Shown: positions 45,250 to 46,311, counted from the first letter of the stretch. The stretch is 64,000 bases of DNA from Dictyostelium discoideum (GCA_000004695.1 CM000150.2:1344001-1408000); one strand, 5' to 3'. Translations and numbers: made by a program. The notes: generated from the letters alone by a model not told the origin.

Positions 45250-45301
45250 TAGTATTAGTATCAGCGGCCGTAGCCGGTGAAATGAAATATAATTTGGTTT
45301 T

Positions 45302-45560
45302 TCAAAGTTATCAACACTGATTCTATATATTCTCAAAAATGCAAGACTTACAAAGTTATCAACACTATTTGTCATTAACACTGCATCCAGTTTGTTGCAA
45401 AATTCAATTTACCATAGACATACAAAGTTATCAACACTATTTGTCATTAATACTCAGTTTGTTTCAAATTTCAATTTACAAAAGACATAAAAAGTTATCA
45501 ACACTATTTGTCATTAAAATTGTACTCAGTTTGTTTCAAATTTCAATTTAAGATTTGAAT
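45302..45560. repeat. Tandem repeat, about 70-bp unit in about 3.5 copies, with invariant core aaagttatcaacactatttgtcattaa
   Basis: The core recurs at about 45302, 45351, 45422 and 45491. Each copy is followed by …cagtttgtttcaaatttcaattta… This is not the homopolymer or microsatellite type usual for this genome. A GC-rich motif (cagcggccgtagccggtg) lies immediately 5'. Confidence 0.8.
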
Positions 45561-46311
45561 GGCCACCAAACCCTTAGAAAGTACCCTCCAAGTTCAACTT
45601 TTTCAATTTTTTCCCACTTTTTTTCATATTTTTCAAAGAAAAAAATAATGAAAAAAATTAATAAAAAAAACCAATAAATATAAATAAATATTCATTTTAA
45701 TTACCAAACAATCTAATTATTATTTTTATTTGTAGTTTTTAAAAAAAAAACCGTTAAAAAACTTTATTGGTTTTTTCTTAATTTTATTTTTTTTTTTTTT
45801 TGAATTGAGTTTTGGAGGGTTAATAAAATAAAGTTAAGGTTTTCATTTAAAGTTTAAATTTTTTATTTTTTATTTTTTTATTTTTTTTTACATTATTTAT
45901 TTATACAATTATATTTTTATTTTTATTAATACAATTTTATTTTTATTTTAACAAGTAGATATTCATCGTCATTGTAACAAATGTCAGAATCATATATTTA
46001 TTTCATTTTGTACACAAACTAATTTTCATTTATTTTCAAATAAATTGATAACCCAATTGCCATTTCATTAAAGTTATTGAAAAATAAAAACAAAAAATAA
46101 AAATAAAAATAAAAAATGAAAAATAAAAATAAAAAATAAATTAATAATCTTTGTTTTATTTTTATAATCTTAATATTATTATTTTTATTATTTAAAAAAA
46201 AAAAAAAAGGAAAAAAAAAAAAAAAAAAAAATTTGTGAGTATGTGGGGAAAGTGTTTTATTAATTTCATAATTATTTTTATGTGTTGTTCAACTGGGGTT
46301 TCCAAACACAA

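Follow-up and report, generated by a model that had tools for sequence, protein, structure and literature searches.

A tandem array behind a small unannotated gene

The DNA analysed here is a stretch of 64,000 nt from Dictyostelium discoideum (GCA_000004695.1 CM000150.2:1344001-1408000; hereafter the window, from whose start all positions are counted). It is Dictyostelium nuclear DNA, with about 20% G+C, homopolymer and trinucleotide runs and poly-Asn/Gln genes. Our subject is a tandem array with a 15-nt core, AAAGTTATCAACACT, which is repeated 3′ of a small unannotated open reading frame (ORF). The ORF (44830-45249, plus strand) encodes 139 amino acids; the protein contains two hydrophobic stretches, which probably span the membrane, and the motif YDTDDYY, which is conserved. 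The array starts 55 nt past the stop codon of the ORF. We compared the locus with others from D. discoideum ACTFIW (L002), D. cf. discoideum ACTFIZ (L004), D. cf. discoideum ACTFIY (L009) and D. citrinum (L010). The comparison points to an old array, the core of which is held while the sequence around it drifts.

In the window, Tandem Repeats Finder reports a repeat at 45343-45550 with a period of 72, 3.0 copies and 87% matches, which is the head-to-tail organization of a minisatellite. A repeat search placed the starts of the full units at 45343, 45415 and 45482, at steps of 72 and 67 bp. All units are on the plus strand. Unit 1 (45343-45414) contains the core 15-mer at 45352-45366, as part of a 27-mer (45352-45378); unit 2 (45415-45481), which has a 5-bp spacer deletion relative to ACTFIW, contains it at 45424-45438, and unit 3 (45482-45550) at 45491-45505. 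Ahead of them lies a unit of a diverged type, unit 0 (45296-45342), which retains only AAAGTTATCAACACTGA (core at 45304-45318) and has orthologous units in ACTFIW, ACTFIY and D. citrinum. A preliminary description, made from the window sequence, had reported a complex tandem repeat of about 70 bp with an invariant 27-nt core, and both statements hold within this genome: there are three full units in addition to the diverged one, and the 27-mer AAAGTTATCAACACTATTTGTCATTAA occurs in three exact copies (at 45352, 45424 and 45491), with 0 matches expected in shuffles. No other copy of it is found in the 64 kb with up to 3 mismatches. A second block, CAGTTTGTTTCAAATTTCAATTTA, is also present in three copies with 0-2 mismatches.

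Units 1-3 clearly arose by tandem duplication. Judged inside this genome alone, the invariance of the 27 nt is only borderline remarkable: an invariant run of 27 columns among 73 aligned columns, 15 of them variable, has P=0.006 if the variable columns are uniformly distributed, and P=0.05 with the spacer indel block taken as one event. The array was also considered as a coding repeat and rejected as such, as the unit lengths are not multiples of three and the orthologous cores fall in different frames across gene models. A 70-aa ORF inside the array has nothing on record in an exact-protein look-up.

The 139-aa ORF belongs to a real gene family, which is small and fast-evolving. A HMMER scan of 1.84 billion representative proteins returned three real relatives, namely P0017 (D. 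cf. discoideum ACTFIY), P0018 (D. citrinum) and P0019 (D. dimigraforme, locus KAN0048192.1). The five family proteins align over their full length, with invariant residues in both hydrophobic segments and with YDTDDYY conserved. The frame is open without indels in four genomic copies (139 aa in the window, 164 aa in ACTFIW, 137 aa in ACTFIY and 133 aa in D. citrinum). The ORF has no Pfam match and no transposase or reverse-transcriptase domain; an exact-protein look-up and a word-index homologue search were empty, which is a weak negative, as the source species is apparently absent from that collection. The first sign that the array also lies behind the gene in other genomes came from gene models, in which the C-termini of P0017, P0018 and P0021 are the core translated in different frames (KLSTLFVIK, KVINTIC and SYQH). 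The NCBI multi-exon models themselves (209 aa for L001, 220 aa for ACTFIW and 262 aa for P0017) were set aside as unreliable predictions, because they are mutually inconsistent and read through the array.

Core conservation and the ancestral locus

The motif array lies 3′ of the ORF at all four loci at which downstream sequence was compared. It comprises four cores in the window (spaced by 48/72/67 bp), five in ACTFIW (49/72/72/58 bp), six in ACTFIY (42/55/56/72/41 bp) and five in D. citrinum (64/55/48/52 bp). Of the 20 units, 16 contain AAAGTTATCAACACT exactly and four differ from it at one position, as expected of an invariant recognition sequence; the usual frame of the core is GAC(A/T)-N3-core-ATT-(T/A/G)GT(C/T). 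Between the window and D. citrinum, mismatches affect 1 of 60 core positions compared with 48 of 127 aligned non-core positions (Fisher, 7e-9), and between ACTFIY and D. citrinum 2 of 75 compared with 46 of 125 (Fisher, 3.6e-9). The same contrast is seen in all genome pairs except window-ACTFIW, for which core (2/60) and non-core (15/185) do not differ (p=0.26). Synonymous divergence (pS) is about 0.42, and the arrays are further separated by many gap columns. Between species the spacers have diverged by about 38%, with many indels, whereas core identity is 97-98%.

In the four-way alignment the cores form islands of identity, the units correspond one-to-one and unit-specific spacers are common to the lineages. 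These shared spacers argue that the array is old and predates the lineage splits, contrary to the young array first supposed. Strong purifying selection acts on the core, with spacer sequence and spacer length left to drift. Concerted evolution alone was rejected as an explanation, as it would homogenize whole units in each genome and not fix one 15-mer across species with differing spacers. The conserved stretch is not the 27-mer of the preliminary description: its first 15 nt stand, together with a few flanking G/C positions, while its 3′ half, which is unconserved in D. citrinum, changes from TTTGTCATTAA to TTAGTTCAG, TTGCCACAA or TTTGTCCAATTG in other units. The second block is missing from D. 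citrinum. On this comparison, the second half of the 70-bp unit is lineage-specific spacer lying outside the functional element.

Copy number can be followed in two close genomes only: ACTFIW has the four units of the window and one extra partial unit, and the L001 array, on a 21.8-kb stretch of assembly GCA_054883475.1 that is 99.5% identical to the window, is identical to that of the window. The 14-mer AAGTTATCAACACT, with one mismatch allowed, has zero matches outside the arrays in the window and ten Dictyostelium loci (about 270 kb), and the unit profile likewise has none outside the arrays in the loci scanned.

The window copy is not in the ancestral position. A TH1-domain gene (47482-49242, plus strand) begins 1.9 kb after the array and is followed by an Abhydrolase_2 gene (49387-50274, minus strand); on the other side lies an aquaporin (MIP) gene (start 41036, plus strand). 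We traced this MIP-TH1 interval through the Abhydrolase_2 orthologues in seven genomes, and among them only ACTFIW has the ORF and the array there. The interval measures about 1.4 kb in D. citrinum and D. dimigraforme, and other sequence fills it in ACTFIY, ACTFIZ, D. firmibasis and D. purpureum. It had been proposed beforehand that a core lacking from related species in which the flanking genes are conserved would speak against a binding-site array, and the syntenic site indeed lacks the core in D. citrinum, D. dimigraforme, D. firmibasis, D. purpureum and ACTFIY. The only reason is that the block as a whole came here as a copy from elsewhere, and at its locus of origin the core is conserved.

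This 2.4-kb block (43584-45995, plus strand) holds the ORF, the array, a second repeat array described below and the tail end of a neighbouring gene. It is collinear with L009 9346-12087, on a different ACTFIY contig from the MIP-TH1 interval. Homology with L009 ends at 45995, and synteny of the MIP-TH1 interval with ACTFIY resumes at 45997, at the right edge of the block. The D. citrinum ORF and array (L010) are syntenic to L009, and the ancestral gene order reads Nup84, a gene of about 1200 aa, the ORF, the array, a convergent 91/92-aa coiled-coil gene, an FG-GAP/EGF_TEN gene and a formin gene. The last 14 or so codons of the coiled-coil gene, YDSDICYNDDEYLL, remain as a relic at the right edge of the block (45953-45995, minus strand); the intact genes (L009 12033-12311 and L010 10913-11188, minus strand) both end in ...NIYYNDDEYSTIYL. 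Since the block is collinear with L009, has its edge where synteny resumes and carries these coiled-coil codons, the window copy is best understood as a 2.4-kb segment that was copied or translocated into an interval of unstable structure, and not as a transposon insertion; the position of the array upstream of the TH1 gene would be due to this copying. The ORF and the array thus co-occur at the ancestral locus in ACTFIY and D. citrinum and in the copied block in the window species and ACTFIW.

Several further features of the block and its surroundings should be mentioned. The coiled-coil ORF (MSLKEAITSLKNDF...EYSTIYL; 91/92 aa), conserved and convergent to the array, is uncalled in both assemblies. 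At 43584-44000 there are exon-like fragments with in-frame stops (...TFVTGGQVHLNGNFSNDKDLC...), without a Pfam match and collinear with L009 9346-9714, from which the P0017 model takes its first exons; they are probably part of a pseudogene that came along with the block. The second array, which lies 125-300 bp upstream of the ORF ATG (Tandem Repeats Finder, 44529-44706, plus strand), consists of about six copies of the 29-bp unit TTTTTTTATTACCAAAATTGTATAAAAAC, so that the 70-bp array is not the only complex repeat nearby. The 29-bp unit is present in about one (degenerate) copy in D. citrinum, two to three in ACTFIY, five in ACTFIW and six in the window. It looks like a multiplied core promoter of TATA box and T-run, judged by the general features of Dictyostelium promoters. 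Directly 3′ of the main array, a stretch of about 270 bp (45551-45821; no strand assigned) including ggccaccaaaccc...ccctccaag is specific to the window lineage. It also includes ggccaccaaacccttagaaagtaccctccaag and is present in the window and L001 only; in ACTFIW and ACTFIY its place is taken by further partial units and poly(A). We rejected it as a miniature inverted-repeat transposable element, as its inverted repeats are of low complexity only. Searches of 44900-45900 and 45540-45835 likewise returned only low-complexity inverted repeats, with none in the array.

The content of the MIP-TH1 interval is different in each species examined, and the interval seems to be a site of frequent insertion. 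Just 3′ of the aquaporin gene, a 134-bp piece of that gene (intron and start of exon 2) is directly duplicated, at 41715-41848 and 42091-42225 (95.6% identity), and ACTFIW has the duplication too. Between the aquaporin gene and the copied block lies about 1.3 kb of complex sequence with broken ORFs (42226-43583), in which 42943-43133 is 80% identical to an inverted duplicate pair in the MIP-TH1 interval of ACTFIZ (L004 14032-14598). The TH1 protein has no record in an exact look-up in a collection of 15 billion proteins, and a homologue search with a TH1-domain fragment was empty in the same collection; both are weak negatives, as the source species is apparently absent there.

Level at which the array would act

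We tentatively read the locus as a selected binding-site array, and as a whole this preferred reading comes close to being probable without reaching it. An old, maintained set of four to six same-orientation copies of the 15-nt core, in the 3′ region of a small hydrophobic-protein gene, would form a multivalent platform docking one sequence-specific factor. The site of action would most likely be the sense mRNA, with the array as part of the 3′ untranslated region (3′ UTR); each core might be shown in a loop closed by a short 4-bp stem, and the outcome would be control of mRNA stability, translation or localization. Taken alone, the RNA-level version is possible, but we would not call it probable. 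Rather unlikely in its full form is a gene-specific, lineage-restricted module in which stem-loop cores in the 3′ UTR of an orphan membrane-protein gene are read by a dedicated RNA-binding factor and were copied together with the gene; if true, it would be a previously undescribed post-transcriptional element in dictyostelids. The protein- or RNA-binding site array first proposed is thereby kept in part, on another basis and with a shorter core, as it is the constancy of the core across species with drifting spacers that speaks for it, and not its invariance within one genome.

In its ancestral position the array is flanked by the 3′ ends of two convergent genes, with no promoter on either side, and therefore it is not a promoter element; nor does it lie upstream of a regulated gene's start, as a promoter-type site cluster would. 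None of the four arrays contains an AATAAA. The first such signal stands 20-110 nt past the last core, a placement that fits a long 3′ UTR ending just past the array; in the window an AATAAA cluster lies at about 45660. The flanking G/C positions are mutually complementary, GAC(A/T) ... (T/A/G)GT(C/T), and give a candidate 4-bp stem with a 21-nt loop. For this candidate, 81% of the cells are paired, compared with 66% in shuffles and at most 60% when the pairing is slid, and 10 cells are changed on both sides. One A-T to T-A swap occurs, and several cells are G-U, which would be mismatches on the opposite strand. A short stem may thus frame the core, but this should be taken as a hint only.

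A number of observations weigh against the preferred reading. In ACTFIY an AATAAA stands 43 nt after the stop codon, ahead of the array, and the position of the array within the gene's 3′ UTR, although probable, is itself read from the sequence. The stem has only 4 bp around a 21-nt loop, and it was picked by eye among related sequences, which inflates the pair counts. RNAalifold predicts no pairs for the 20 units, and on neither strand is the folding of the array better than that of shuffles (z 0.09 and 0.35). Since all copies derive from tandem duplication, their shared orientation is uninformative about the acting strand. Neither a binding factor nor a known motif or a publication could be connected with the core; a search of the full-text literature with the 27-mer, the core, the 18-mer described below and the 3′-flank strings, as DNA and RNA on both strands, returned nothing relevant. 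In ACTFIW three of the five cores are changed at position 9 (C9T twice and C9G), with other changes in addition, and in the window lineage the ORF is nearly neutral (dN/dS 0.8-0.9) and has lost its tail. From these core changes, the near-neutral ORF and the lost tail, it follows that this particular copy may be decaying.

We may ask at this point whether the array acts on double-stranded DNA instead. The cores would then bind a protein of multi-zinc-finger, Myb or GATA type, and the array could either enhance or silence the small gene from the 3′ side or separate the two convergent genes, as an insulator or a roadblock terminator comparable to the Sal-box/TTF-I terminator arrays behind rRNA genes. 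We consider such action unlikely, although it has to be reckoned with. Homotypic clusters of DNA sites typically look like this, with an invariant 15-bp motif in four to six variably spaced copies, TGATAA on the minus strand of the core fits the WGATAR consensus, on sequence reading only, RNA structure is without thermodynamic support, and the position between convergent genes suits termination or insulation. On the other hand, that 3′-3′ intergenic region adjoins no promoter, and a factor with no other site in the roughly 270 kb of Dictyostelium DNA scanned would have very few targets. The flank changes of G-U type also suit RNA pairing better, if weakly.

Alternatively, the cores could be targets of a small RNA of about 21 nt, or the units could be tandem small non-coding RNA genes. 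The conserved stretch, 15 nt and at most about 28 nt with its flanks, is near small-RNA length, and many sites in one 3′ UTR recall lin-14 and lin-4, by analogy only. We nevertheless regard this as very unlikely. Rfam gives no match at the gathering score, and the array has none even at E up to 10. In 44700-46100 there is no DUSE, no class I RNA 11-mer (the CCTTACAGCAA motif) and no C box, and the array shows no hairpin precursor, having neither inverted repeats nor a folding signal. The central heptamer of the core is in none of the miRNAs of the PMC11014262 supplement, in either orientation. An Rfam match to the histone stem-loop outside the array (E=0.5) was taken as chance.

The possible decay of the window copy leads to a further alternative, namely that the ancestral array is functional while the window copy and its ORF are drifting, the ORF to a pseudogene and the array now being a neutral minisatellite. 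Part of the evidence lies in the GC-rich sequence between the ORF and the array. The 18-mer cagcggccgtagccggtg (45262-45279) is indeed exceptionally GC-rich, as had been noted, and is the sole 18-mer with 14 G+C in the whole window, not just in its intergenic part. It does not directly precede the array, as 24 nt separate it from the first core, and it is not conserved in the relatives: the 18-mer is absent from ACTFIW, and its ACTFIY counterpart is cagcagccattgtccgtg, aligned with Ser/Gly-rich tail codons. It lies in the relic of a Ser/Gly-rich C-terminal tail (45250-45295, plus strand), 37% diverged from ACTFIW, in the frame of which it reads AGC GGC CGT AGC CGG TGA. At this position ACTFIW has in-frame GSGSGSSSITSRR, with (GGTAGT)n here, and its ORF extends via GSGSGSSSITSRRNELYYGFQSYQH to a stop inside unit 0; the ACTFIY tail is agtatcagcagccattgtccgtga (SISSHCP*). 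In the window a 5-bp deletion after TGT puts a stop ahead of the 18-mer, and the tail frame is lost. Since it aligns with the tail codons of the relatives and the window frame is broken, the 18-mer is decayed tail-coding sequence lying outside the functional element.

A decaying relic would agree with this loss of the tail through a 5-bp deletion and with the ORF dN/dS of 0.92 for window-ACTFIW and 0.81 for window-ACTFIY, compared with 0.45 for the ancestral-locus copies (ACTFIY-D. citrinum). It would agree as well with the altered ACTFIW cores, with the similar core and non-core divergence between the window and ACTFIW, and with a host interval that is structurally different in each species examined. 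However, the frame is open in both lineages, with no indel in 139 codons between indel-rich flanks, and four of four window cores are intact. The array is only 4.5% diverged from ACTFIW, compared with 6.4-9% in neighbouring non-coding DNA, and if the block was moved and not duplicated, the window copy is the genome's only one. Taken together, we judge the relic explanation improbable.

Relation to known repeated elements

Two classes of known repeats were weighed as explanations of the array in their own right: a mobile-element terminus or subterminal repeat, and a bacterial or plasmid cluster of iterons or DnaA boxes acquired horizontally. An origin of this kind is extremely improbable. The presence of the block does vary between close species, as it does for transposon subterminal repeats and for the complex repeats of Dictyostelium (TRE, DIRS-1, Skipper, DDT and thug), which are likewise complex, non-AT-rich DNA. 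However, ARAGORN finds no tRNA genes in the 64-kb window, so that the location beside a tRNA gene seen for TRE5/TRE3 and DGLT-A does not apply. The array has one copy per locus and no dispersed copies in the 270 kb, and neither an element-type ORF nor a transposase or reverse-transcriptase domain accompanies it. The unit is the 3′ flank of a host gene at a single-copy locus that is syntenic in two species, and the moved block includes a piece of a neighbouring host gene, its right edge lying inside the truncated gene. No terminal inverted repeats or target-site duplications were noticed at the block edges, where no systematic search was made. The mobile-element terminus offered in the preliminary description finds no support here.

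With bacterial DnaA-box clusters and plasmid iterons the array shares direct repeats of about 15 nt and variable spacing, and the core holds TTATCAACA, an 8/9 match to the DnaA box TTATCCACA. A metagenome scan for two cores 28-58 nt apart returned six contigs, none of them dictyostelid, of which three resemble the DnaA-box clusters of bacterial origins and one is a coding repeat. In the bacterial contigs L011, L012 and L015, AAGTTATCAACACT stands beside GTTATCCACA boxes, in what look like DnaA-box clusters of replication origins. Yet the likeness of the core spans 9 nt only, and the array is at a eukaryotic nuclear locus among ordinary Dictyostelium genes, where neither DnaA nor Rep is known as a partner; we take the resemblance to be most likely a coincidence.

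Compared with a neutral minisatellite, units 1-3 of the window are similar in their head-to-tail order, their length of about 70 bp and their identity of about 87%. The array differs in that its units are orthologous one-to-one and that, with 97-98% identity of the core against spacer divergence of up to 38%, core and spacers do not drift equally, as neutral repeats would.

The comparison also covers arrays of functional sites. Sal-box/TTF-I repeats are arrays of terminator boxes downstream of mammalian rRNA genes. The array has in common with them, and with homotypic clusters in general, that boxes of about 15-18 bp, all facing one way and separated by variable spacers, follow a transcription unit. 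It differs in that a protein-coding gene of Pol II is concerned, with no matching described Dictyostelium element found in the literature, and it differs from homotypic clusters in promoters in that the ancestral array lies between convergent genes. The transferrin-receptor mRNA carries five iron-responsive elements, which are multi-copy stem-loops in its 3′ UTR. The likeness here covers several short copies, an invariant exposed sequence, a short variable stem, irregular spacing and drifting spacers, whereas the sequence is unrelated, the stem of 4 bp has no thermodynamic support, and transcription and a binding protein are putative.

To our knowledge, very few cis-regulatory elements have been defined in Dictyostelium, and almost none in 3′ regions. 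The 15-nt element is sharply bounded and has strong comparative support, as it stays identical while synonymous sites diverge by about 0.6 substitutions per site, and nature offers it in different dosages (4, 5 and 6 copies) and, by relocation, in a new chromosomal context. It could serve directly as bait for the factor recognizing it and as a model for studying regulation at gene 3′ ends, and the analysis has also uncovered a small membrane-protein gene family that the annotation of this genome lacks. As one small gene is concerned, the biological scope is probably narrow. Set beside the systems above, the array is a new and well-delimited case of a familiar class, that of repeated cis-elements in the 3′ region of a gene.

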